The translations under genes and the position numbers were made by a program. 53,597 nucleotides of DNA from Syntrophaceae bacterium (GTDB lineage: Bacteria; Desulfobacterota; Syntrophia; Syntrophales; UBA4778). Position 1 is the first letter of the stretch, and each line of letters begins with the position of its first letter. The stretch lies in NCBI GenBank assembly GCA_039680225.1, contig JBDKTK010000417.1, positions 1 to 53,597 of the forward strand, read 5' to 3'. This document shows, in pieces, positions 2,162 through 22,043 of this stretch. Under the pieces are notes generated by a model that saw nothing but the letters and a program-made list of their open reading frames with translations, ran no database searches and was not told the DNA's origin.

Positions 2162-3177
2162 TGTACGCTCCCTCTCATCACAACTGTAAGCCTGCCGATC
2201 TCCTCCATGAGCTGGTAATATTTTTCCGGCTTGAGCGACTGCAGGCCGTCCGAAACGGCCTTCTCCGGCTCGGGATGGACTTCCACCAGCAGACCGTCGG
2301 CGCCCACGGCAACCGCCGCCCGCGACAGGGGCAGCACGTATTTCCAGTGCCCGGCCGCATGGCTGGGGTCCACGATTACCGGCAGATGCGTCAGTTCCTT
2401 CAGCACCGGCACGGCGCTTATATCAAGCGTGTTGCGGGTGGCCGTCTCGAAAGTCCTGATCCCCCGCTCGCAAAGGATCACATTCTCATTTCCGGCCGAA
2501 AGGATGTACTCGGCAGACATGAGAAGCTCGTCAATCGTGGTCATCAGGCCCCTTTTCAGGAGGACAGGCTTATGGGCCAGGCCGACCCGTTTGAGGAGAG
2601 CAAAATTCTGGACGTTGCGCGCGCCGATCTGGAGGATATCGGCGTACTCCTCGATCATGTCCACGTCCGTCGTGTTCATCACTTCGGTGACAACGGGCAT
2701 GCCGGTCCAGTCATGCACTTTTTTCAGGAGCTTGAGCCCCTCCTCTTCCATCCCCTGGAAGCTGTACGGAGATGTCCGGGGCTTGAACGCGCCCCCGCGC
2801 ATGATCTGCGCCCCGCCCTTCCTGACGATATAGGCGCTCTCCATGAGCTGCTCTTCGCTTTCAATTGAGCAGGGGCCAGCCATGACCACGAAATTCGGCC
2901 CCCCGATCTCGACATCCCCGACTTTGACGACCGTCACCGCATCGCGGTACTCGCGGCTTGCCAGTTTGTACGGCTTGAGGATCGGCATGGTCTTCTCCAC
3001 CCCGGCCAGGTGCTCGGCGCTCTTGAGCTCGTTTTTGCCCCGTTCGTCGCCGACCGCCCCGATGATGGTCCTCTCGATGCCCCGCGAGGGGTGGGCCTTG
3101 TAGCCGACTGATTCAATCCAGCTGATCACGTTCTGAATCTCCGGTTCCGTTGCGTTCCTTTTCATAACTATTATCAT
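2158..3177 (-). CDS. aroF: 3-deoxy-7-phosphoheptulonate (DAHP) synthase, type I-beta, with N-terminal ferredoxin-like regulatory domain
   Basis: Tracked ORF is 2158..3264. I place the start at ATG 3177 ([17 protein letters not shown]), which follows the SD GGAGGTG at 3181-3187. KDO8P/DAHP synthase-type motifs [27 protein letters not shown] and VIVDPSH are present. The upstream 29 codons cover terminator hairpins and are unlikely to be coding. Confidence 0.85.
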
Positions 3178-3189
3178 TTCCACCTCCAG

Positions 3190-3269
3190 AAAAAAGGGCC
3201 ATGGAGGTTTCGCCCCCCATGGCCCCGAAAACAAAAAAGCCATGGGCAGCTTCAATCTACCCATGGCTT
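3190..3269 (-). terminator. tandem intrinsic-terminator hairpins forming the attenuator of the aro operon
   Basis: On the minus strand, AAGCCATGGG-N13-CCCATGGCTT is followed by TTTTGTTTT. Next, GGGCCATGGGGG-GCGAAA-CCTCCATGGCCC (12 bp including one G-U pair) is followed by TTTTTT. This second hairpin ends 2 nt before the aroF SD. Arms of the two hairpins are mutually complementary (CCCATGGC / GCCATGGG). Confidence 0.6.
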
Positions 3270-3289
3270 ATTTTTTTATTTAGTGCTTC

Positions 3290-3379
3290 TTAATTCCCCT
3301 TAAGCGATGGGCAGACCTGTGCGGTAAAATAATAATAGCTAAACCAGAAGCTGAAAAATTTTACCGTCATGCTGCGCAT
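3290..3379 (-). CDS. aromatic amino-acid leader peptide (29 aa), MRSMTVKFFSFWFSYYYFTAQVCPSLKGN
   Basis: Hand-translated small ORF not present in the track. Nine of 11 consecutive codons are Phe (5), Trp (1) or Tyr (3). It lies directly upstream of the terminator hairpins and the aroF-aroB-pheA operon. The SD is only weak (AAGGGA, 12 nt upstream). Confidence 0.55.
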   Translation of the reverse strand: MRSMTVKFFSFWFSYYYFTAQVCPSLKGN

Positions 3380-3473
3380 CTAATTACTTTGTCCCTTTTA
3401 TTCGGTTCCTTTAAATATCGGATCAGGTGCAAAAAGAGCACAAAAAGCGTTTCGTTGTCAAGGAAATTATTTT

Positions 3474-4388
3474 TCAGTATATCCCGAGGAGCCTCAGCAA
3501 CCCCCTTCTGTTCTCCTCAGGCTTCCTTATTGCGCTCCAGGAAACCGTCTTGCCGGAGTCTTTCCTGATCGTCCCTGTGATGCTGTCTTCATTGACAATT
3601 CCTTCGAAGTGCAGCTCGGTCCTGCTGTTGCCCGTGTTGAAGGTGATCCCCTCCCCTTTGATCCTGCCTTTTTTAATGCCCTTCTTCTCCTGCCCGGATT
3701 TGATTTTACCGGAGAACCTCTGGTAGCTCTGGGTCAGTTCCATCGTGAAAATCTCGGGGCCGTTGCCCAGGTCGGCCTCCCAATGCCATATTCCGTCAAC
3801 ACGCGCCGGTATCACCCAGAGGTAAAGATTGCGCCAGTCCACCCGGGCGCTCTTGTCCGGCACCCACTCTCCCATCGTATGGCAGTGGGACACGACCCTC
3901 GTGCCCGGCCTCAATTCATTGAGGAGCTTGGGCCGGAGCTTGATATTCACGTCCGGGTACAGGAAGAGCATGACAACTGTCGCCTTGCTCAGGTCGGAGT
4001 CGAACAGGTTTTGCTCGTAAAAAGTCACTCTGCCCGAAAGGCCTTCCTTGAGGGCGTTTTCCCTGCTCTCCTTGATGCGCCGGGGGTCGAGGTCGATCCC
4101 GACGGCGCGGCACCCGGCTATCCGGGCGGCAGCCAGCACGATCCGGCCGTCGCCGCAGCCGAGATCGTACACAATATCATTCTTTGTGACCCCGGCCATC
4201 CTGATCATCTCCTCCACGACCTCGGTGGGGGTCGGTTCATAAGGCACATCGAGCCCGGGCCTGGCGGCTTTTGCGTATTGCATTACATAAACCTCGCCGG
4301 AATTATCGAAGGAAAATGCATTTCCCGCAAGCGTTATAATCAGGGCGGACGCAAATATAAAGCATTCCTGTTTCCATTTCATCTTCAA
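3474..4388 (-). CDS. class I SAM-dependent methyltransferase with N-terminal signal/anchor sequence and extra C-terminal domain
   Basis: 304 aa with a hydrophobic N-terminus (CFIFASALIITLAGNAFS). SAM motif I is VYDLGCGDGRIV, preceded by VPYEPTP. It is a paralog of the next gene. Confidence 0.75.
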   Translation of the reverse strand: MKMKWKQECFIFASALIITLAGNAFSFDNSGEVYVMQYAKAARPGLDVPYEPTPTEVVEEMIRMAGVTKNDIVYDLGCGDGRIVLAAARIAGCRAVGIDLDPRRIKESRENALKEGLSGRVTFYEQNLFDSDLSKATVVMLFLYPDVNIKLRPKLLNELRPGTRVVSHCHTMGEWVPDKSARVDWRNLYLWVIPARVDGIWHWEADLGNGPEIFTMELTQSYQRFSGKIKSGQEKKGIKKGRIKGEGITFNTGNSRTELHFEGIVNEDSITGTIRKDSGKTVSWSAIRKPEENRRGLLRLLGIY

Positions 4389-6718: not shown

Positions 6719-6895
6719 ACATCCTCCTGAATCTGTTTTGACTCGGGCGGATTCGGGATGAGGCCGAAATTGCAGGCGGGATCAGAAGGGAAAATATCAG
6801 TTCATATAAAATTAGTATTGCCAGCCGGGCAAAGTCAAGGCAAAGTCAAGGAAGAGCACGGCTGTTGAAGGTCGCATCCAAATCCAGGAAGAACA

Positions 6896-13397: not shown

Positions 13398-14396
13398 ATG
13401 AAAATAAAAGAACTGGGGGAGTTCAGGTTCATTGACCGCGTCAAGCAGGGATGCGTCGTGCGCCCGGGAGGGGTCATCAAGGCCATTGACGACGATTGCT
13501 GTGTCTTCAGGACCCCCGAAAAAAAAGTAAACCTGCTCACCACCGATATGCTGGTCGAAAACATTCATTTCATCCGGGACGCGATTCCCGCATTCACGCT
13601 GGGCAGGAAATCGCTGGCGGTGAATATTTCCGATATCGCCGCGATGGGCGGAGTGCCCGGGGAAGCGGTCATATCGCTGGCCATCCCGGAGACGGTCGAA
13701 GTCGATTACCTCGATAAATTCTATGAAGGCATGAGGTCGATGTGCGGGGAGTTCATGGTCAACATACTCGGCGGGGACACCACTTCATCGCCGCAGCACC
13801 TGGCAATCAATATCGCGCTCACCGGCTGGGCCGCCGAGGACGAGGTGCTTTATCGCGACGGCGCCAGGCCGGGGGATATCGTTTTCCTGACCGGTCATGT
13901 CGGCTCGTCTGCGGCGGGGCTCGATATCGTGCTTACGAAAAGGGAGTTCGCGGGGAAACAGGAACTGCTGGATGCGCATTACGACCCGCGCCCCCAGGTG
14001 AAAGAGGGCCGGATTATTTCCGGCCTGAAGGCGGCACACTCGCTGATTGACGTGTCCGACGGCATTGCTTCGGACCTGGGCCATATCTGCCGGCAATCCG
14101 GGGCCGGCGCGGTCCTGGATTGGAGCGATATCCCTGTAACGGAAACGTTCCGGAAGTATTGCGCTCAATTCCAGGAAGACCCCGAGAGGCTGGCGCTGCA
14201 CGTGGGCGAGGACTATGTATTGCTGGGCACCCATCCGGCTGAGAAGGCTGTAATCCTGAAGGAAGCGCTGCTCTCCAAGGGGTGCCGGTACTTTCCCATC
14301 GGGAGAATTGTTGAAGGGTACGGCATAAAACTGCAGATGCCGGACGGCGCGATCAAACCGATCCCCGACCGCGGTTACGACCACTTCCGGAAATGA
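13398..14396 (+). CDS. thiL: thiamine-monophosphate kinase
   Basis: 332 aa with a PurM/AIR-synthase-like fold. LGEFRFIDR, LTTDMLVENIHF, NISDIAAMGG and LGGDTTSS are typical ThiL motifs. Confidence 0.85.
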   Translation: MKIKELGEFRFIDRVKQGCVVRPGGVIKAIDDDCCVFRTPEKKVNLLTTDMLVENIHFIRDAIPAFTLGRKSLAVNISDIAAMGGVPGEAVISLAIPETVEVDYLDKFYEGMRSMCGEFMVNILGGDTTSSPQHLAINIALTGWAAEDEVLYRDGARPGDIVFLTGHVGSSAAGLDIVLTKREFAGKQELLDAHYDPRPQVKEGRIISGLKAAHSLIDVSDGIASDLGHICRQSGAGAVLDWSDIPVTETFRKYCAQFQEDPERLALHVGEDYVLLGTHPAEKAVILKEALLSKGCRYFPIGRIVEGYGIKLQMPDGAIKPIPDRGYDHFRK

Positions 14397-14427
14397 CCGG
14401 CGCCTCAATGAGGGAATTCAAGCGGCC

Positions 14428-14468
14428 AAAAAAAATAACACGGACTTGGCGGTGTCCGTGTTATTTTG
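14428..14468. terminator. bidirectional rho-independent terminator between thiL and the small-peptide genes
   Basis: AATAACACGGAC-ttggcggt-GTCCGTGTTATT, a 12-bp stem flanked by an A-run on the left and a T-run on the right. Confidence 0.7.
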
Positions 14469-14537
14469 AGGGAGGTATGGCGCAGGAACTTTATTCCCGC
14501 AGTGCATTGCTGCACGGTGAATCTACATAAAAGGTTA

Positions 14538-14627
14538 TTACTCGAACGGTGTTGCCATCGGGTCAACCCATTTCACCCAGGTATATTTCGCTTTAGCTGT
14601 TTTTTGGGTCTTTTCGGTCTTTTTCAT
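14538..14627 (-). CDS. small Lys-rich peptide a (29 aa), MKKTEKTQKTAKAKYTWVKWVDPMATPFE
   Basis: Hand-translated and not in the track. SD GGAGGA lies 7 nt upstream of the ATG. It is paralogous to peptide b at both the nucleotide and protein level. Confidence 0.6.
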   Translation of the reverse strand: MKKTEKTQKTAKAKYTWVKWVDPMATPFE

Positions 14628-14658
14628 TTTAAATCCTCCTTCATGAATCTGAAATCAT

Positions 14659-14751
14659 CTATTCAATCGGGGTTGCCATCGGGTCGAAATCAGCCAGCTT
14701 TATCCACTCGTATTTCTCTTTGGTCTCTTTGGTCTTCTCGGTCTTTTTCAT
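14659..14751 (-). CDS. small Lys-rich peptide b (30 aa), MKKTEKTKETKEKYEWIKLADFDPMATPIE
   Basis: Hand-translated, with SD AAAGGGGA upstream. It shares MKKTEKT at the start and DPMATP(F/I)E at the end with peptide a. Confidence 0.6.
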   Translation of the reverse strand: MKKTEKTKETKEKYEWIKLADFDPMATPIE

Positions 14752-14780
14752 TTCGGATCCCCTTTCTTAAAGATTTCGTT

Positions 14781-14879
14781 TTACGGCCTGAAAGGATAGC
14801 AGGTGGGGTCTACCCAGAGTCCTCCGACCTTGCGCGCCCTTTCTCTTGACCCTTTTTTGTTTCTGATGTCCTTTTTCAT
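14781..14879 (-). CDS. small basic peptide c (32 aa), MKKDIRNKKGSRERARKVGGLWVDPTCYPFRP
   Basis: Internal ATG of tracked ORF 14781..14981, preceded by the SD GGGGAGG. It shares the MKK start and the W-V-D-P motif with peptide a. Confidence 0.5.
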   Translation of the reverse strand: MKKDIRNKKGSRERARKVGGLWVDPTCYPFRP

Positions 14880-15197
14880 CCTTCTTACCTCCCCTTGGGG
14901 AGTGTCGGTTCTTTTTTCGCGATTAAAATATACTTCGCGCCCTGCCTGGACAATCGGAGTTCTTCCGAAAAAATAGTTCAATAAAGAAATAAATTTCTTA
15001 GGAGGGGCAATAAAGCCCTGATCGGTGTTTGTCCTATTGTTTTTCTCAGGGATTTCTATAAAATCTTGAAAGCCGCGGCACGGCGGGCGGGATTGCCGGA
15101 ATGCAGCAGAAAAAAATCCTTTGTACTCCGGAGGATTTCAATTGACACGGCATTGAGTTAAATATATTCATCTCCCTGAAAATATTGGAGAAAACAA

Positions 15198-17432
15198 GTG
15201 GACAAAAGAAAATCCAAAATAGAGCTGATCAATGAACTGGCCGAACTGAGGGGCCAGATCCAGGAACTCAAGAAATCAGAAACAGACAGCCTCTTCGAAG
15301 AGGGCCTTTACAAATATCTCGAGAGCAGTTCGAAGGCGGGAATTTACGTTTTGCAGGACGCGAAGTTTCAGTTCGTCAACCACCACGCCGCCAGGTACTG
15401 GGGCTATAACCGGGACGAGCTGATCGGTATGGAATCGATGAGCATTGTCCACCCCGAGGACCGGCTCAAGGTGCGGGAAAACGCGATCAGGATGCTCAAA
15501 GGGAAACGGACATCCCCTTACGAGTTTCGCACCGTGGCGAAAAACGGTGACATCAGATGGCTGACGGAAACAGTCACCCCCATTCATTTCCGGGGCAGGA
15601 GGGCGGTCCTCGGCAATTCAATGGACATAACCCAGCAAATCAAGTCCCGCAACAAGCTTGCGGAACTCGAGGCGCTCGAAGCTTCTATACTCGAAGCCAT
15701 ACCTCATGCCGTAATAGGGCTTCGGAACAGGCGCATAATCTTTGCCAACGACGGCGTCCAGGCGGTCTTCGGCTGGAAAGCAAGGGACCTCATCGGCAAG
15801 AGCACGCGTGTGCTGTACCCGACGGAGGAGGGCTTCGAGGAAATAGCAAAGATGCTCTATTCCACGCTTGAGCGCCAGCGCACTTTCAGCGCCGAATTCA
15901 CATGCAGCCGCAAGGACGGGACCGAAATAAACTGCATGATCAGCGCGTCCCGTATCGGGGAAAGCCTGCAGGACAAGAACATAGTCATCACTTACGAGGA
16001 CATCACAGACCGCCAGCGCGCCGAAGAAGCTTACAAGATGATGGCGGACAGTTCGCAGGCCGGCGTTTACGTGGTTCAGAACGACGTCTTCCAGTTCGTT
16101 AACCACAATGCCGCCCGGTATGCGGGCTACAGCTCCCAGGAGCTTGCCGGGACGAATTCCATGGGCCTCGTCCATCCTGATGATCTGAAGATGGTGCGAA
16201 AAAACGCTATGGCCATGCTGAAAGGCAAGCGCATGGCGCCCTACGAGTTCCGGATAATCACCAAGGACGGCCGCATCCGCTGGATAATGGAGACGGTCAC
16301 CTTCATCCCCTACCGGGGAGCGCGGGCGGTCCTCGGCAATTCGATGGACATCACGGAGCAGTTCGAAGCCCGCAACAAGCTTGCGGAACTTGAAGAGCTT
16401 GAGGCCTCCATTCTCGAAGCAATACCGCACGCGGTAATCGGGCTCAGGGACAGGACAATCATTTTCGCCAACGACGGAGTCCAGGCTGTCTTCGGATGGA
16501 AAGCCGAAGACCTTATCGGCAGGAGCACTCGGCTCTTCTACCCTTCAGACCGGGAGTATGACGAGATAGCAAAGCAGCTTTACTCGACGCTCGAGAAACA
16601 GCGCACCTTCAGCACGGAATTTGTCTGCAGGCGCAAGGATGGCAGCAATATCGAAGTCATGATCAACGCCTCGCGAATCGGGGAAAAACTGAAGGAGCGC
16701 GGGATAGTCATCACCTACCAGGACATCACGGAGCGCAACAAGGCCAAGAACGAGCTGCAGCGGTCCCGGGAGCAGTTGCGCAACCTCTCGGCCCACCTTG
16801 AATCCGCCCGGGAGCAGGAAAGGACCAGGATTGCCCGGGAGCTCCACGATGAGCTGGGACAACTCCTCACCGCGCTCAACACAGATGTGATTCTCCTGAA
16901 CAGGGACATCCCGGAAGAGCAGAAATCGCTTCGGGAGAAGACCGCTTCATTGTCGAATCTCATCGATATGACAATGAAGACGTGCAAGCGGATTTACATG
17001 GACCTGCGGCCCGGCATGCTGGACCACCTGGGGCTTGCAGTCGCCGTCAGCTGGCTTTCGGATGAATTCCAGAAACGGACCGGCATCGCCTGCAAGGTGT
17101 CAATCGACCCTGAGGACATGGTGGTCGACCCGGACCTTTCCACCGCAATCTTCCGCATCTGCCAGGAGACCCTTACGAACGTGCAGCGCCACGCGGAAGC
17201 CACGCGTGTGAAGATTGATATGAAAGCAAAAGATGATCATATTGAACTGAGTGTCAGAGACAATGGAAAAGGCATTACGCAGGAGCAGCTGACCAAGCCC
17301 AACTCGTTCGGCCTGCTCGGCATACAGGAACGGGCGTTGCACTGGGGAGGAGAGGTTAAGATAACCGGCAAGGAAGGTAAGGGGACGTTGATCAAGGTCC
17401 GGATGCCGCTGGCGAAAGGAGCAGTTGTATGA
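15198..17432 (+). CDS. cytoplasmic multi-PAS sensor histidine kinase (HisKA_3 / NarX-DegS type)
   Basis: 744 aa with a GTG start after GGAGAA and no transmembrane segment. It has four PAS-like modules. The HisKA_3 H-box is RIARELHDELGQ, and the HATPase_c motifs are DNGKGI and GLLGIQERA. Confidence 0.85.
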   Translation: MDKRKSKIELINELAELRGQIQELKKSETDSLFEEGLYKYLESSSKAGIYVLQDAKFQFVNHHAARYWGYNRDELIGMESMSIVHPEDRLKVRENAIRMLKGKRTSPYEFRTVAKNGDIRWLTETVTPIHFRGRRAVLGNSMDITQQIKSRNKLAELEALEASILEAIPHAVIGLRNRRIIFANDGVQAVFGWKARDLIGKSTRVLYPTEEGFEEIAKMLYSTLERQRTFSAEFTCSRKDGTEINCMISASRIGESLQDKNIVITYEDITDRQRAEEAYKMMADSSQAGVYVVQNDVFQFVNHNAARYAGYSSQELAGTNSMGLVHPDDLKMVRKNAMAMLKGKRMAPYEFRIITKDGRIRWIMETVTFIPYRGARAVLGNSMDITEQFEARNKLAELEELEASILEAIPHAVIGLRDRTIIFANDGVQAVFGWKAEDLIGRSTRLFYPSDREYDEIAKQLYSTLEKQRTFSTEFVCRRKDGSNIEVMINASRIGEKLKERGIVITYQDITERNKAKNELQRSREQLRNLSAHLESAREQERTRIARELHDELGQLLTALNTDVILLNRDIPEEQKSLREKTASLSNLIDMTMKTCKRIYMDLRPGMLDHLGLAVAVSWLSDEFQKRTGIACKVSIDPEDMVVDPDLSTAIFRICQETLTNVQRHAEATRVKIDMKAKDDHIELSVRDNGKGITQEQLTKPNSFGLLGIQERALHWGGEVKITGKEGKGTLIKVRMPLAKGAVV
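15336..16781 (+). repeat. internal tandem duplication (2 x 723 bp = 2 x 241 aa, each a double-PAS unit) inside the kinase gene
   Basis: AGIYVLQDAKFQFVNHHAARYWGY...NKLAELEALEASILEAIPHAVIGLRNRRIIFANDGVQAVFGWKA is repeated. The second copy reads AGVYVVQNDVFQFVNHNAARYAGY...NKLAELEELEASILEAIPHAVIGLRDRTIIFANDGVQAVFGWKA. The period measured from the sequence is 723 nt. Confidence 0.85.
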
Positions 17433-18067
17433 AAAAAGTCAGAATCCTGATTGCGGATGATCACCCGATAGTCAGGGAGGGTTACAAGAAGATTCTCATG
17501 GACATGCCCGACTTGGTTGTTTCCGATGAGGCCGGCAACGGGCAGGAGGTGCTTAACCTTGTCCGGAAGAAGGATTATGACCTCATCCTCCTGGACATCT
17601 CGATGCCCGGGCGCAATGGGCTGGAGATACTCAAGGACCTGAAAGAGGAAAAACCCAAACTGCCGGTCATGATCCTCAGCATCTATCCCGAAGAGCAGTA
17701 TGCCGTCAGGGCGTTCAGGGCGGGCGCTTCGGGTTACCTTACCAAGGCGAGCGCTCCGACCGAGCTGATATCCGCTATCCGGAAGATCTCCCAGGGCGGC
17801 AGGTACATCAGCTCCTCCATGGCGGAAAAGCTCACATATTATTTTGATGCCGATACATTGAAGCCGCCCCATGAAAACCTCTCCGACCGGGAGTACCAGG
17901 TAATGCTGATGATTGCTTCGGGTAAAACTGTCAAGGAGATAGGTGAGGAGTTATTCCTCAGCGTCAAGACAATCAGCACATACAGGACCCACATCCTGGA
18001 AAAGATGAAGCTGAAAAACAACGCGGAAATCACCCTCTACGCTATCCAGAATAAGCTCGTTGGCTGA
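17429..18067 (+). CDS. LuxR/NarL-family response regulator (REC + HTH_LuxR)
   Basis: 212 aa with RILIADDHPIVREG, the phospho-acceptor context LILLDISMPG, and the C-terminal LSDREYQVMLMIASGKTVKEIGEELFLSVKTISTYR. ATGA overlap with the kinase stop. Confidence 0.9.
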   Translation: MKKVRILIADDHPIVREGYKKILMDMPDLVVSDEAGNGQEVLNLVRKKDYDLILLDISMPGRNGLEILKDLKEEKPKLPVMILSIYPEEQYAVRAFRAGASGYLTKASAPTELISAIRKISQGGRYISSSMAEKLTYYFDADTLKPPHENLSDREYQVMLMIASGKTVKEIGEELFLSVKTISTYRTHILEKMKLKNNAEITLYAIQNKLVG

Positions 18068-18113: not shown

Positions 18114-18281
18114 AATATTATTCCCGGCTCATAGGAGAAACACCGATGCCGGGGACAAATCCAGTCCTAAAAGGATAAACTTTCCGTCTTAACCGCAATT
18201 CGGACGCTCGCCGATTTTCTCCTGAAGCAGCCTGCAATAGATTGTACTCGAAAAAAGAAAAGGCCCGCAGGAGGAGCCAAA

Positions 18282-18392
18282 ATGCTGAAAGCGAGAATCG
18301 GACACAGAACAGAATTCAATCCCAAGATGGATGAAATTTTAGGACTGAAGAAAGACAGGATCTGGAACGATCCTACGAGCCGCGCTCGTTAA
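18282..18392 (+). CDS. small ORF d (36 aa), MLKARIGHRTEFNPKMDEILGLKKDRIWNDPTSRAR
   Basis: Hand-translated, with a strong SD GGAGGAG 7 nt upstream. It contains I-W-N-D-P-T-S, which resembles L-W-V-D-P-T-C of peptide c. Confidence 0.4.
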   Translation: MLKARIGHRTEFNPKMDEILGLKKDRIWNDPTSRAR

Positions 18393-18559
18393 AGTCTTTT
18401 TTCTATATAGAGAGCCGATTTCAGTAGGTCCTCGGTCGGAGCTCTCCGATAGATTACGGAGGGCAATCCTTTTTCACCTGTGGCGGGGCTTCAAAACCCC
18501 GCCATCGGCTCCCTCCTCAAGACAAGGCGGGCTGAAAATAAAACAGGGAGGTGATAAGA

Positions 18560-18661
18560 ATGGCCAAGTTAAGGAGCAAAACCAATAAACCAGGGATCAA
18601 GGAACTGGACGAGATTAAAAGAGAGACTATCGCCTGCATCATCGGCAATGAAGTCCCCTGA
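18560..18661 (+). CDS. small ORF (33 aa), MAKLRSKTNKPGIKELDEIKRETIACIIGNEVP
   Basis: Hand-translated, with SD GGGAGGTG 8 nt upstream. It is followed by a hairpin (AGCCCC...GGGGCT) plus a T-run at about 18683-18720, and preceded by a structured leader. Confidence 0.4.
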   Translation: MAKLRSKTNKPGIKELDEIKRETIACIIGNEVP

Positions 18662-18977: not shown

Positions 18978-19241
18978 TTATCTGCCAAGCCGTGCGTTCC
19001 TGTAATAAAGCAGGACGTCCGTGAGCACCAGGGCTCCGTTGAGCGCATAGAGGTAAATGACATAATCGAAATTATAGAAAATCTTGTGAAATACGCCGGC
19101 GACGTAACCTGTCAGGACGACATAAAGAAAGGCCACGCTCTTCCCGGCATTGGATTTCGATTTATAAGAGCGATAAATCGAAAAAGGCCAGGCGGCCCCG
19201 AAGCAGACAAGCATAATTATTTCGAAGATACTGAACGACAT
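18978..19241 (-). CDS. PQ-loop / SemiSWEET-like small membrane protein
   Basis: 87 aa with three hydrophobic helices. AAWPFSIYRSYKSKSNAGKSVAF aligns by eye with the APQ..K....R...G.S motif of bacterial SemiSWEETs. A hairpin follows the stop at 18944-18975. Confidence 0.5.
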   Translation of the reverse strand: MSFSIFEIIMLVCFGAAWPFSIYRSYKSKSNAGKSVAFLYVVLTGYVAGVFHKIFYNFDYVIYLYALNGALVLTDVLLYYRNARLGR

Positions 19242-19298: not shown

Positions 19299-21896
19299 TT
19301 AGAGCTTGGCTCCCCTGAGCCTGAGCGCGTTGGCGATGACCGAAACGGAACTGAAGCTCATTGCCGCCGCGGCGATCATCGGGCTGAGCAGCAGACCCGT
19401 AAAGGGATAAAGTATTCCCGCGGCAACCGGGATGCCGAGCGCATTGTACACGAACGCAAAGAAGAGGTTCTGCCTGATGTTGCGCATGGTGGCCCGGGAA
19501 AGCTTTATGGACCGTACAATACCGACGAGGTCCCCTTTGACCAGGGTCACGCCCGCGCTTGCCATCGCGACGTCCGTGCCCGTTCCCATCGCGATTCCGA
19601 CGTGGGCCTGGGCGAGCGCCGGCGCATCGTTTATTCCATCCCCCGCCATGGCCACGGTGCGGCCCTCGGCCTGCAATCGTTTTACCTCTTCGGCTTTCCG
19701 GTCGGGGAGCACTTCCGCCGTGAAGTCGTCGATGCCGAGTCTCGCCGCCACGGACCTGGCTGTCGTCGAACTGTCGCCCGTGATCATGACGACCTTCACA
19801 CCCTCCTCATGGAGCTGCCGGATGGCGTCAGGGGTGGATTCCTTTATGGGGTCGGATACGCCGAGGAGGCCGGCGGGCCTGCCGTCGACAGCGAGAAACA
19901 TGACCGTTCTGCCCTGCTGCCGCATTTCCTCGGCTTTTACCGCCGCTGCCCCGAAATCCATCCCGAGCGAATCCAGCAGGGATTTATTGCCGAGGGCTGC
20001 CGGGCGCCCCTCGACTTTGCCTGCCACCCCTTTTCCGGTGATGGACTGGAAAGATTCGGTTTCTGCCGGCATTATGTCCTTTTCCGCTGCTCCGCCCGCA
20101 ATGGCTGATGCAAGGGGGTGCTCGCTCCCCAGCTCCAGGCTCGCAGCGTAAAAGAGAACAGACTGCTCATCAAATCCCTGTAAAGGCACGATATCGGTCA
20201 GCCTGGGCTTTCCCACCGTCAGTGTGCCGGTCTTGTCGATTACGAGCGTGTCGACCTTCTGCATTATTTCTATCGCTTCGGCGTTTTTGAAAAGGACTCC
20301 CGCCGTCGCGCCTTTCCCCGCGGCGACCATTATTGACATGGGAGTTGCAAGGCCCAAGGCGCAAGGGCAGGCAATTATAAGGACTGCAACAGCATTGATA
20401 ATCGCGTACGCCATCCGGGGCTCCGGTCCCAGAAGGGCCCAGGCAATAAATGTAATCACTGCAGCCGCAAGGACCCCTTGCACGAAATACGCGGCGACAA
20501 TGTCCACCATGCGCTGGATGGGCGCGCGACTCCTCTGGGCTTCGGCAACCATCTGGACGATGCGCGCCAGCAGCGTTTCGGAGCCGATTTTTTCGGCCCG
20601 CATCACGATGGAACCCGTCCCGTTGACCGTCGCCCCGATAACCTTGTCGCCTGGTGCTTTGGCTGCCGGAATCGGTTCGCCTGTCACCATGGATTCGTCC
20701 ACCGAACTGGAACCTTCGATCACTGTCCCGTCCACGGGGATCTTTTCTCCGGGCCTGATCCTTAATTTATCGCCATGGGTGACATCAGAAAGGGGGATAT
20801 CGTTTTCCGTGCCGTCCTGGTTTATGCGCCGGGCAGTATTGGGGGCCAGACCCAGGAGGGCCCTGATTGCCGCCCCCGCCCGCCCCCTGGCCCGCAATTC
20901 AAGGACCTGGCCGAAGAGGACCAGCGTGGTAATGACGGCAGCTGCCTCGAAATACGTTCCGACTTCCCCGTCCATTCCGCGGAAAGAGGGAGGGAAAAGG
21001 AAAGGGAAGAAGACCGAGATGACACTGTAGAGATAAGAAACGCTTACCCCGATGCCGATCAGGGTGAACATATTAAGGCTGCGGTTCAGGATGGATTCCC
21101 AGCCCCTCGCCAGAAGCGGCCATCCGCCCCAGAGGACGACAGGAGTGGCCAGGACGAGCTCGGCCCATTTCAGGGTTTTTACCGAAATGAAATTCTCCAG
21201 GTGCAGGCCCGGGATAAGGTCCCTCATCGCGACCAGGACAAGGGGGATCGACAGAATCGCCGAAATCCGGAACCGGCGCGTCATGTCCACAAGCTCGGGG
21301 TTCTCCTCTTCGAGCATAATGGTGCGCGGCTCAAGGGCCATGCCGCATATCGGGCAGCTCCCCGGCTCGTCCCGGATTATCTCCGGGTGCATGGGACAGG
21401 TCCACTCTGTCCTGATCTGCGGTCCGGCCGGAAGCATTGGCTCCAGGGCCATACCGCATTCGGGGCAGGAGCCCGGACCGGTCTTCTGCACTTCGGGATG
21501 CATCGGGCAGGTATAGATGCGTTCATCTTTCCCGGTGGCCTTCGGCTCGGGTTTCTTTTCCAGGTACTTATCCGGTTCCTTCCGGAAGCGTTCGAGGCAG
21601 CGAGGGTTACAGAAATAATATATCGTGCCCTTGTATTCGTATCTCAGGGCGTCCGGCGTAATCTCCACGTCCATCCCGCAGACAGGGTCTTTGGCCGTTT
21701 TGACAGCCGGTTTATCTTTAGCAAGGTATTTCTCGGGGTCCTCCCGGAAGCGTTCCAGGCACCTCTGACAGCAGAAATAATACGTTTTCCCGTGGTAATC
21801 GTAATGCGGCGCGCCGGGTGTCATTTTCACCGACATCCCGCAGACTGGATCCCTGGCGCTCTTGAAGCTGTCCTTGAAGATATTCTCTTTATCCAT
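19299..21896 (-). CDS. copA: heavy-metal (copper-type) translocating P1B-type ATPase with 2x YHS/TRASH and 2x YTCPMHP-type N-terminal metal-binding repeats
   Basis: Start placed at ATG 21896 (MDKENIF). Motifs present are DPVCGM...YYFC..RCLERF (twice), (Y/W)TCPMHPE...GSCP.CGMALEP (twice), the transmembrane CPC motif ([11 protein letters not shown]), DKTGTLT and [10 protein letters not shown]. Confidence 0.9.
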
Positions 21897-22043
21897 AATT
21901 TGTCCGTTTTCCTTATAAGTTAAGCATAATAAGAGGGTTTGCAAGGACAATTACAGGAGGAAACAGGCCAAATGAATAAAAAACTGGCACATTTGTGAAT
22001 TAGAGTTATTATGCTGATCGGACTAAAAATAGAGGAGGCAGAT

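Follow-up and report, generated by a model that had tools for sequence, protein, structure and literature searches.

An apparently Syntrophales-restricted family of WxDP micro-proteins, encoded in tandem arrays behind a predicted two-palindrome promoter

What is encoded by three tandem open reading frames (ORFs) of about 30 codons, c, b and a, on the minus strand of a Syntrophaceae genome? They lie on contig JBDKTK010000417.1 (assembly GCA_039680225.1), of which positions 1 to 53,597 were analyzed and are referred to as the window. A sequence-only reading of this stretch had proposed an orphan small-protein family or precursors of ribosomally synthesized and post-translationally modified peptides (RiPPs), with small cytoplasmic regulatory or stress proteins as a fallback. 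Our comparisons indicate that a, b and c belong to an undescribed small-protein family restricted to Syntrophales, here named WxDP. The features of the locus are compiled in Table 1.

Table 1. Genes and predicted signals of the WxDP locus (coordinates of the window)
Feature	Position	Strand	Description
Gene c	14781..14879 (ATG 14879, stop 14781)	minus	32 residues, MKKDIRNKKGSRERARKVGGLWVDPTCYPFRP; WxDP family, main GG-[IL]-W-x-D-P subtype; first gene of the operon
Gene b	14659..14751 (14751->14659)	minus	30 residues, MKKTEKTKETKEKYEWIKLADFDPMATPIE; paralog of a with a 2-residue insertion ahead of D-P
Gene a	14538..14627 (14627->14538)	minus	29 residues, MKKTEKTQKTAKAKYTWVKWVDPMATPFE; WxDP family, a subtype; final gene of the operon
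Shine-Dalgarno sequence of c	14894-14888	minus	GGGGAGG
Shine-Dalgarno sequence of b	14765-14758	minus	AAAGGGGA
Shine-Dalgarno sequence of a	14640-14634	minus	AGGAGGA
Intrinsic terminator	14427..14467	minus	perfect long hairpin and U-run; ends the c-b-a transcript; also 3' of the convergent thiL
Putative regulated promoter of c-b-a	14916..15036	minus	two palindromes of 15-17 bp each, 68 bp apart
c promoter, site 1 palindrome	15036-15022	minus	TAGGACAAACACCGA
c promoter, site 2 palindrome	14968-14954	minus	TCGGAAGAACTCCGA; abuts the -35-like box
c promoter, -35-like box	14953-14948	minus	TTGTCC (predicted)
c promoter, -10-like box	14930-14925	minus	TATTTT (predicted)
Start region of c-b-a	~14918	minus	conserved CGAAAAAAG; predicted transcription start
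Sensor histidine kinase	15198..17432	plus	four PAS, HisKA_3 and HATPase_c domains (Pfam, NCBIfam); divergent from c-b-a
Response regulator	17429..18067	plus	REC and GerE/LuxR helix-turn-helix, NarL/UvrY/FixJ type; below every equivalog cut-off
d promoter	18132..18214	plus	same two-palindrome design; site 1 18132-18146 TAGGAGAAACACCGA; site 2 18200-18214 TCGGACGCTCGCCGA; spacing 68 bp
Gene d	18282..18392	plus	36 residues, MLKARIGHRTEFNPKMDEILGLKKDRIWNDPTSRAR; EFNPQ family, also with a W-N-D-P tail; directly after the regulator
thiL	13398-14396	plus	convergent neighbor beyond gene a

All three ORFs were present exactly as first described, each preceded by the stated Shine-Dalgarno (SD) sequence at the right distance from its ATG. 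The spacers between c, b and a measure 29 and 31 nt, and the encoded peptides have masses of 3.5–3.8 kDa. Independent gene calls exist for a and b on five near-identical public contigs, and the mechanical ORF list of the window carries c with its start moved out to a TTG at 14981. The strong terminator that had been noted behind the set was likewise recovered: the 126-nt 3' region (14415–14540), with its hairpin and U-run, has a fold energy of −41.5 kcal/mol (z = −5.3), and a simple terminator scan of the window did not report this hairpin (14467–14427). Judged from a single conserved promoter, the short spacers with an SD sequence for each gene and the one terminator, c, b and a are predicted to form one transcription unit.

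Selection on these genes was estimated as the ratio of nonsynonymous to synonymous substitution rates (dN/dS) by the NG86 method, using locus L018 from a Syntrophaceae metagenome-assembled genome (MAG) as the nearest distinct relative; the strain-level contigs L001–L005 are >99% identical to the window and uninformative for evolution. Between the window and L018, dN/dS was 0.024 for gene a and 0.20 for gene c, which has orthologues in L018 and L024. The check proposed earlier for the pair of a and b gave 0.09, indicating purifying selection, and the two were found to be paralogs at the DNA level codon by codon, as had been claimed. For ten orthologues of another WxDP subtype the ratio was 0.14, with summed pairwise differences of 60, 138 and 275 at codon positions 1, 2 and 3, respectively; differences in WxDP genes concentrate at third codon positions. 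Since L018 carries c and a without b, b is probably a recent duplicate of a; b-type orthologues are P0002, P0037, P0040, P0045 and P0064. Antisense to a, b and part of c runs a plus-strand ORF of 127 codons (14466–14849), which represents an annotation trap. This frame is open in both the window and L018 because the sense codons are rich in AAA, AAG and GAA (Lys/Glu). Over the a region, however, it gave a dN/dS of 1.36, and L018 does not share its stop codon, so that the suspicion that this might be the conserved ORF did not hold. The comparisons argue that a, b and c are real coding genes under purifying selection in the minus frame (dN/dS 0.02–0.2).

Seven clusters were retrieved from 1.84 billion representative proteins with a profile of a, b and c, including peptides of 37–39 residues with ...KAYKVGGIWVDPMCFPF... 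A second profile, seeded with longer mis-called homologues and run against a 5.8-billion collection, yielded 86 clusters, about 63 of them at E <1e-3. Nearly all of the 86 comprise 25–50 residues, every one is unnamed or 'hypothetical', and the organism names attached to the clusters are Syntrophus, Syntrophaceae and Syntrophales only. The family core is W-x-D-P-[MT]-[CSA]-x-P, in which D-P is invariant and the Trp and second Pro are near-invariant; Met is substituted by Thr or Leu and, depending on the subtype, Cys by Ser or Ala. The N-terminal half is variable, charged and rich in Lys, Arg and Glu. With a profile built from clades outside that of the window, c (E 3e-13), a (7e-5), b (0.16) and d (0.48) were the top four among 1643 six-frame segments of the window. 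No significant match was obtained in Pfam, NCBIfam (E up to 10), PHROGs, PADLOC, a sequence profile search of the PDB or Rfam, and a literature search on the small proteins of the taxon and on the family motif returned nothing relevant. The one match to TIGR04447 (cyanobactin PatC), 17 bits against a cut-off of 30 and located in the K/E-rich N-terminus of one subtype, was rejected as compositional. The earlier designation as an orphan family was thus justified, and the WxDP peptides are new only in the sense of falling outside every described family or system.

To examine the distribution of the family, one genome per species (185,579 species) was scanned at the DNA level for sequences encoding G-G-[ILM]-W-x-D-P-[MT]-x-[FY]-P, written as a degenerate pattern. 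Among 50 matches in total, 39 were small SD-preceded ORFs from approximately 32 MAGs labeled Syntrophales, Syntrophaceae, Syntrophus, Syntrophobacterales or 'delta proteobacterium'. The remaining 11 lie inside ORFs of 73–717 codons in unrelated taxa; about 17 chance matches were expected, as estimated from the information content of the pattern. Chance matches in L015, L020 and L034 (Saprospiraceae, Rhodobacteraceae and Psychroflexus) share the segment ...LIRTxLLxxYGG[IV]WxDPT[TVC][YF]P... within proteins of 180–290 residues, and its likeness to the peptide core is probably coincidental.

The multiplication of paralogs seen in the window turned out to be a family trait. Arrays of two to five paralogs, each gene with its own SD sequence, are the rule, and nearly all of the approximately 100 family ORFs listed have an SD sequence. 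The complete chromosome OY764159.1 carries three two-gene arrays (L037, L042, L050) and MFD04716.bin.3.457 three arrays of three to four genes (L039, L040, L046), with up to about 12 paralogs per genome. The order of paralogs within arrays is conserved, for example ...ERVWEDPLLNPRQ / KKYWTDPMSFP / RRGGIWYDPMCFP / KKFWADPMCYP. In P0008, P0044 and P0070, from metagenome contigs, two copies occur as one ORF of 73–81 residues without an intervening stop, so that tandem genes are either sometimes fused or were mis-called. In a Syntrophales MAG, P0083 (L045 ~3100–3600, minus strand) comprises 159 residues, with an N-terminal WxDP peptide followed by a Cys-rich region resembling a B-box/RING zinc finger (sub-threshold in Pfam).

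The regions upstream of c (14880–15197) and d are homologous and share site 1, site 2, a -35-like TTG, a -10-like box, the conserved start region and an SD sequence. The perfect dyad TCGG-N7-CCGA occurs three times in the 53.6-kb window. Two of these occurrences belong to the promoters of c and d, and both have a one-mismatch partner 68 bp off; the third (6753–6767) has no such partner and sits in the intergenic space separating divergent amino-acid permease and methyltransferase genes. In 418 kb of Syntrophales loci, a relaxed pattern found 25 pairs spaced 67–70 bp apart, all upstream of family genes: 22 fall within 450 bp upstream of arrays, a space that makes up 28 kb of the 418 kb (binomial p = 3e-23), and the other three precede family genes that the regular expression had missed (P0065 in L008, a d-type gene in L018, and P0083 in L045). 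The palindrome consensus is approximately CATMGGA-N5-CCGATG; derived from 24 distinct promoters, site 1 reads CAT[AC]GGAcaaAc.CC[GT]ATG and site 2 ATTC[AG]GA-N6-CCGATTg. Nearly all family arrays are preceded by the two-palindrome promoter, and each such promoter seen heads small ORFs only. Promoters activated by a dimeric helix-turn-helix (HTH) protein classically have paired dyad operators at fixed spacing, the proximal one over the -35 region. A sigma-54 promoter after site 2 was considered and rejected, as the GG/GC spacing is off by 1–2 nt and the sigma-70-like -35 and -10 boxes fit better.

Between c-b-a and d lie the genes of a sensor histidine kinase and a NarL-type response regulator. 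In the kinase, Pfam gave no membrane domain and no hydrophobic stretch was seen, although no membrane-segment prediction was made. Orthologues of the kinase (67–94% identity) adjoin arrays in L018, L024, L029, L038 and L057, and orthologues of the regulator (75–99% identity) adjoin arrays in the same five loci and in L058. In L018 and L024 the array is arranged divergently upstream, as in the window; in L029, L038, L057 and L058 it directly follows the regulator gene, as d does. Given this linkage, kept in two arrangements, and the operators themselves, the regulator is the best candidate for the factor that binds the palindromes. A comparable design is found in the DosR/DevR dormancy regulon, where a NarL-family regulator and PAS/GAF kinases control promoters with at least two phased palindromic boxes. 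In common with it, the WxDP locus has a NarL-family regulator, a PAS kinase without a Pfam membrane domain and two boxes at fixed spacing, the proximal one over the -35 region; it differs in its box (~CATMGGA-N5-CCGATG) and in that the regulon seen here consists of micro-protein genes only.

Gene d, which is called as a gene in public data, belongs to a second undescribed small-protein family, EFNPQ (E 9e-17 against the EFNPQ profile), with the motif R-[IV]-E-F-N-P-Q-x-x-[IV]-L-G. This family comprises 38 clusters, all unnamed or 'hypothetical'; orthologues of d are P0047, P0049, P0055, P0057 and P0067. The EFNPQ gene is usually the first cistron of WxDP operons, and in loci with operators about 240–310 nt ahead of the first WxDP gene an EFNPQ cistron occupies the gap. 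Because d carries both motifs, there are hints that the WxDP and EFNPQ peptides may work together, perhaps as heterodimers.

The peptides are predicted to be strongly hydrophilic, with grand average of hydropathy (GRAVY) values of −1.05 to −1.25 for a to d, and no hydrophobic, signal or membrane segment was seen by eye in the listed family sequences. The earlier description as highly basic applies to a and c, with isoelectric points (pI) of 9.8 and 10.6, but not to b (pI 6.2, net charge about 0). An AF2 model of c from a 46-sequence alignment (mean predicted local distance difference test score, pLDDT, 68.5) has a short helix at residues 7–12 and a beta-hairpin (16–18 / 21–23) around the G-G turn that presents the Trp, followed by D-P...P; the model is at most suggestive of a mini-fold or docking module. 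A role as a type I toxin or small membrane protein was discarded in view of the hydropathy values and the lack of a visible hydrophobic stretch. Metal binding by the Met-Cys pair is unsupported, as both residues are replaceable, and mimicry of the tail of single-stranded DNA-binding protein or of a clamp-binding motif is a superficial resemblance only.

Based on these results, we consider it somewhat better than an even chance that a, b and c are hydrophilic cytoplasmic micro-proteins that form the output of the adjacent two-component system and act by binding, rather than RiPP precursors. An intracellular rather than exported peptide is suggested because the sequences are hydrophilic and show no signal or membrane segment, because fusions to a zinc-finger-like region (P0083) and between tandem copies occur, and because no transporter is linked; a cytoplasmic location therefore appears probable. 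Binding is the most likely mode of action since the peptides are too small and too polar for enzymes or membrane proteins. In the pathway that we propose, an intracellular signal, possibly redox or metabolic, would cause the four-PAS kinase to phosphorylate the NarL-type regulator. The palindromes would serve as operators for a dimeric HTH activator, most likely this regulator, which would activate the c-b-a and d promoters and thereby make the micro-proteins the output of the pathway. The invariant Trp/Asp-Pro/Pro module might then dock onto a conserved Syntrophales target, while the charged N-terminal tail may tune solubility or electrostatic contacts. With the shared promoter and the conserved two-component linkage, the fallback of small cytoplasmic regulatory or stress proteins fits the locus better than the precursor proposal.

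Several observations weigh against this interpretation. The regulator adjoins arrays in only about 7 of 39 loci, which all come from one clade, so that the palindromes could belong to a different transcription factor. Since the promoters are paralogs, some of their resemblance reflects common descent and not independent selection. Neighborhoods of 8–20 kb could miss a remote, unlinked maturase or exporter. The AF2 model of c is only moderately confident, and the conserved Cys, Ser or Ala in subtypes, is left without explanation.

We tentatively entertain a wider proposal, which we rate as possible but doubtful: that the WxDP peptides and the co-transcribed EFNPQ peptides form a new class of micro-protein effectors, a dedicated multi-paralog regulon that would be the sole output of a PAS two-component system without an evident membrane domain in syntrophic Syntrophales. 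Their invariant Trp/Asp-Pro/Pro module would dock onto a core component of syntrophic energy metabolism or of the translation machinery. As a more radical alternative, enzymes encoded at a distance would convert the peptides into a new cofactor or signal.

Could the peptides be precursors of a RiPP, a cofactor or a signal peptide, with W-x-D-P-M-C-x-P as a modified core in the manner of PqqA or MftA and the maturase, protease or exporter encoded elsewhere? Short peptides with a nearly invariant C-terminal motif containing Trp, Cys/Ser and Pro, present in multiple precursor-like copies, would be in line with this explanation, and two-component control is common for peptide-signal loci. The surroundings of the genes were examined by Pfam annotation of the window and seven diverse homologues and by clustering all ORFs of at least 80 residues from approximately 43 loci. 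The eight annotated neighborhoods had nothing in common: the neighbors include ThiL; tRNA-edit/TauE; a branched-chain ABC importer and acyl-CoA ligase; MoeA and hydrogenase; PFOR and CspA; old yellow enzyme and STAS; and BcrAD, and they differ wholly between clades. In approximately 40 loci from about 32 species-level genomes, no recurrent maturase or other modifying enzyme, RiPP recognition element (RRE) protein, peptidase or exporter was found beside the arrays, and in the window no leader peptidase or exporter lies within ±10 kb. This neighbor survey, which had been suggested beforehand, recovered no recurrent radical SAM/SPASM, peptidase or ABC exporter gene, and extended to other loci what had already been noticed in the window, namely that no maturase, protease or exporter is adjacent. 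Radical SAM genes do occur 5–7 kb off in two loci (L008, L012), and one C39-like gene lies 7 kb from the array in L006 and is not recurrent. What did recur in the clustering were PAS, kinase and regulator proteins and a membrane protein of 91 residues (8 loci).

The peptides themselves also differ from precursors. Compared with a typical leader-plus-core layout, the WxDP layout is reversed: variation lies in the N-terminal half, and the C-terminal motif hardly changes. The Y-x-W-[VI]-K triad that had been taken as a feature of the peptides and as reminiscent of cyclophane cores is limited to the a and b subtypes; conserved family-wide are the W, D-P and P. The Cys of the motif is replaced by Ser or Ala, the distance of the motif from the C-terminus is variable and C-terminal fusions (P0083, P0065) are tolerated, and, as described above, every two-palindrome promoter seen drives small ORFs only. 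PqqA, MftA and the XyeA/GrrA/FxsA precursors likewise have 20–45 residues, a polar N-terminus and a conserved aromatic/Cys/Pro motif at the C-terminus, sometimes in multiple copies. To our knowledge, however, they are always encoded beside a radical SAM enzyme and an RRE partner, whereas the WxDP genes have no linked radical SAM/RRE gene, no family-wide aromatic-x-basic triad and no fixed length after the motif. The RiPP or cyclophane reading was not supported at any cluster-level feature tested, and we regard precursors with remote processing genes as unlikely.

Two related candidates were rejected. A double-glycine leader (K-V-G-G followed by I-W...) is at odds with the a and b subtypes, which have no GG, with the missing hydrophobic/acidic leader consensus and with the lack of a linked C39 transporter. 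A leader peptide, an attenuation upstream ORF or a ribosome-arrest peptide would need a gene downstream, and there is none, as the terminator follows directly after a and thiL is convergent. The array also resembles leaderless bacteriocins in its tandem genes for Lys- and Trp-containing peptides of about 30 residues, each with its own ribosome-binding site and no leader, although b is not cationic. Aureocin A70, garvicin KS and enterocin L50 form amphipathic or hydrophobic helices, and ABC transporter or immunity genes lie beside theirs; the WxDP peptides have a strongly hydrophilic composition (GRAVY about −1.1), and neither a transporter nor an immunity gene is close by.

A second alternative assigns the peptides to feedback. 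As two-component-induced small 'connector' proteins, like MgrB for PhoQ, they would be induced by the regulator, bind the PAS kinase or the regulator, and damp or re-tune signaling. The linkage to an orthologous kinase-regulator pair in two gene arrangements and the single operator design before both flanking peptide units are consistent with such a loop, and the four PAS domains of the kinase could offer peptide docking sites. Like the connectors MgrB (of PhoPQ), PmrD and SafA, the WxDP peptides are very small, their genes lie by a kinase-regulator pair and are apparently controlled by it, and by analogy binding rather than catalysis would be expected. MgrB and SafA are membrane-anchored, whereas the WxDP peptides are predicted to be soluble, occur in arrays of two to five with up to about 12 copies per genome and are mostly unlinked to a two-component system; their regulation and binding are predictions from sequence. 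About 32 of the 39 loci have no such system within 4–8 kb, and genomes with several arrays (L039, L040, L046) hold more paralogs than a feedback loop needs. There is no homology to any known connector, with no Pfam or NCBIfam match at E up to 10 to MgrB, PmrD, SafA or MzrA. A connector function thus appears improbable.

Bulk protection would be a third explanation, with the peptides acting stoichiometrically as stress-induced, hydrophilin-like proteins, as binders of nucleic acids or polyanions, or as Met/Cys redox or metal buffers. They are very hydrophilic, mostly basic and multi-copy, with strong SD sequences that suggest high expression; one array adjoins a cold-shock protein gene (L011), and in the window a copper P-type ATPase gene lies about 1 kb past d. 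However, D-P is invariant in the eight-residue motif and Trp and the second Pro nearly so, which speaks for a specific binding interface instead of bulk chemistry; b is not basic, and Met and Cys are replaceable (by T or L and by S or A, respectively), so that we give bulk protection a low probability. Least of all do we believe, and the comparative data effectively refute, that the ORFs are chance frames on a non-coding RNA or that the plus-strand ORF is the true gene: the peptides are shorter than usual annotation thresholds and the antisense frame is open in both the window and L018, but that open frame is a by-product of codon content, the substitution ratios favor the minus frame, Rfam gave no match, and the amino-acid motif is kept across about 80 clusters despite synonymous turnover.

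Further features were observed around the arrays. The recurrent 91-residue membrane protein has no Pfam match (L006 9408–9995, L010 4668–5222, also L033, L039, L040, L048, L049 and L056); it is encoded near arrays of different subtypes, often divergently, and in L006 and L010, the two of these loci for which Pfam annotation exists, it adjoins an AtpI-like PF09527 gene. Behind d, positions 18560–18661 (plus strand) hold an SD-preceded ORF of 33 residues, MAKLRSKTNKPGIKELDEIKRETIACIIGNEVP, which is called as a gene in public data and followed by a hairpin terminator; a TCGG-N6-CCGA dyad lies nearby (18436–18449). A small ORF ending in ...CLVNGEVP after the array in L048 (6357–6446) is weakly similar to it, and the 33-residue ORF may represent a third associated micro-protein. 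The copper-type P1B ATPase (19299–21950, minus strand) has two N-terminal YHS/TRASH-like domains and an HMBD, and beside it a membrane protein of 87 residues without an assigned family is encoded (18978–19241, minus strand).

Syntrophales, including Syntrophus, Smithella and their relatives, carry out key steps of fatty-acid, aromatic and alkane degradation in methanogenic systems, and they are hard to grow and poorly annotated. For this group our analysis contributes two conserved families of micro-proteins, mostly overlooked or labeled 'hypothetical' by annotation pipelines, a recognizable promoter code usable in genome-wide searches for the regulon, and a candidate sensor-regulator pair, which together offer a concrete and testable way into a lineage-specific signaling response. 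It also illustrates that dN/dS, restriction to one taxon and a common promoter design can validate a family of 25–45 residues by sequence alone. Should binding to a central enzyme complex or to the ribosome prove true, the peptides would represent new regulators in syntrophic physiology.

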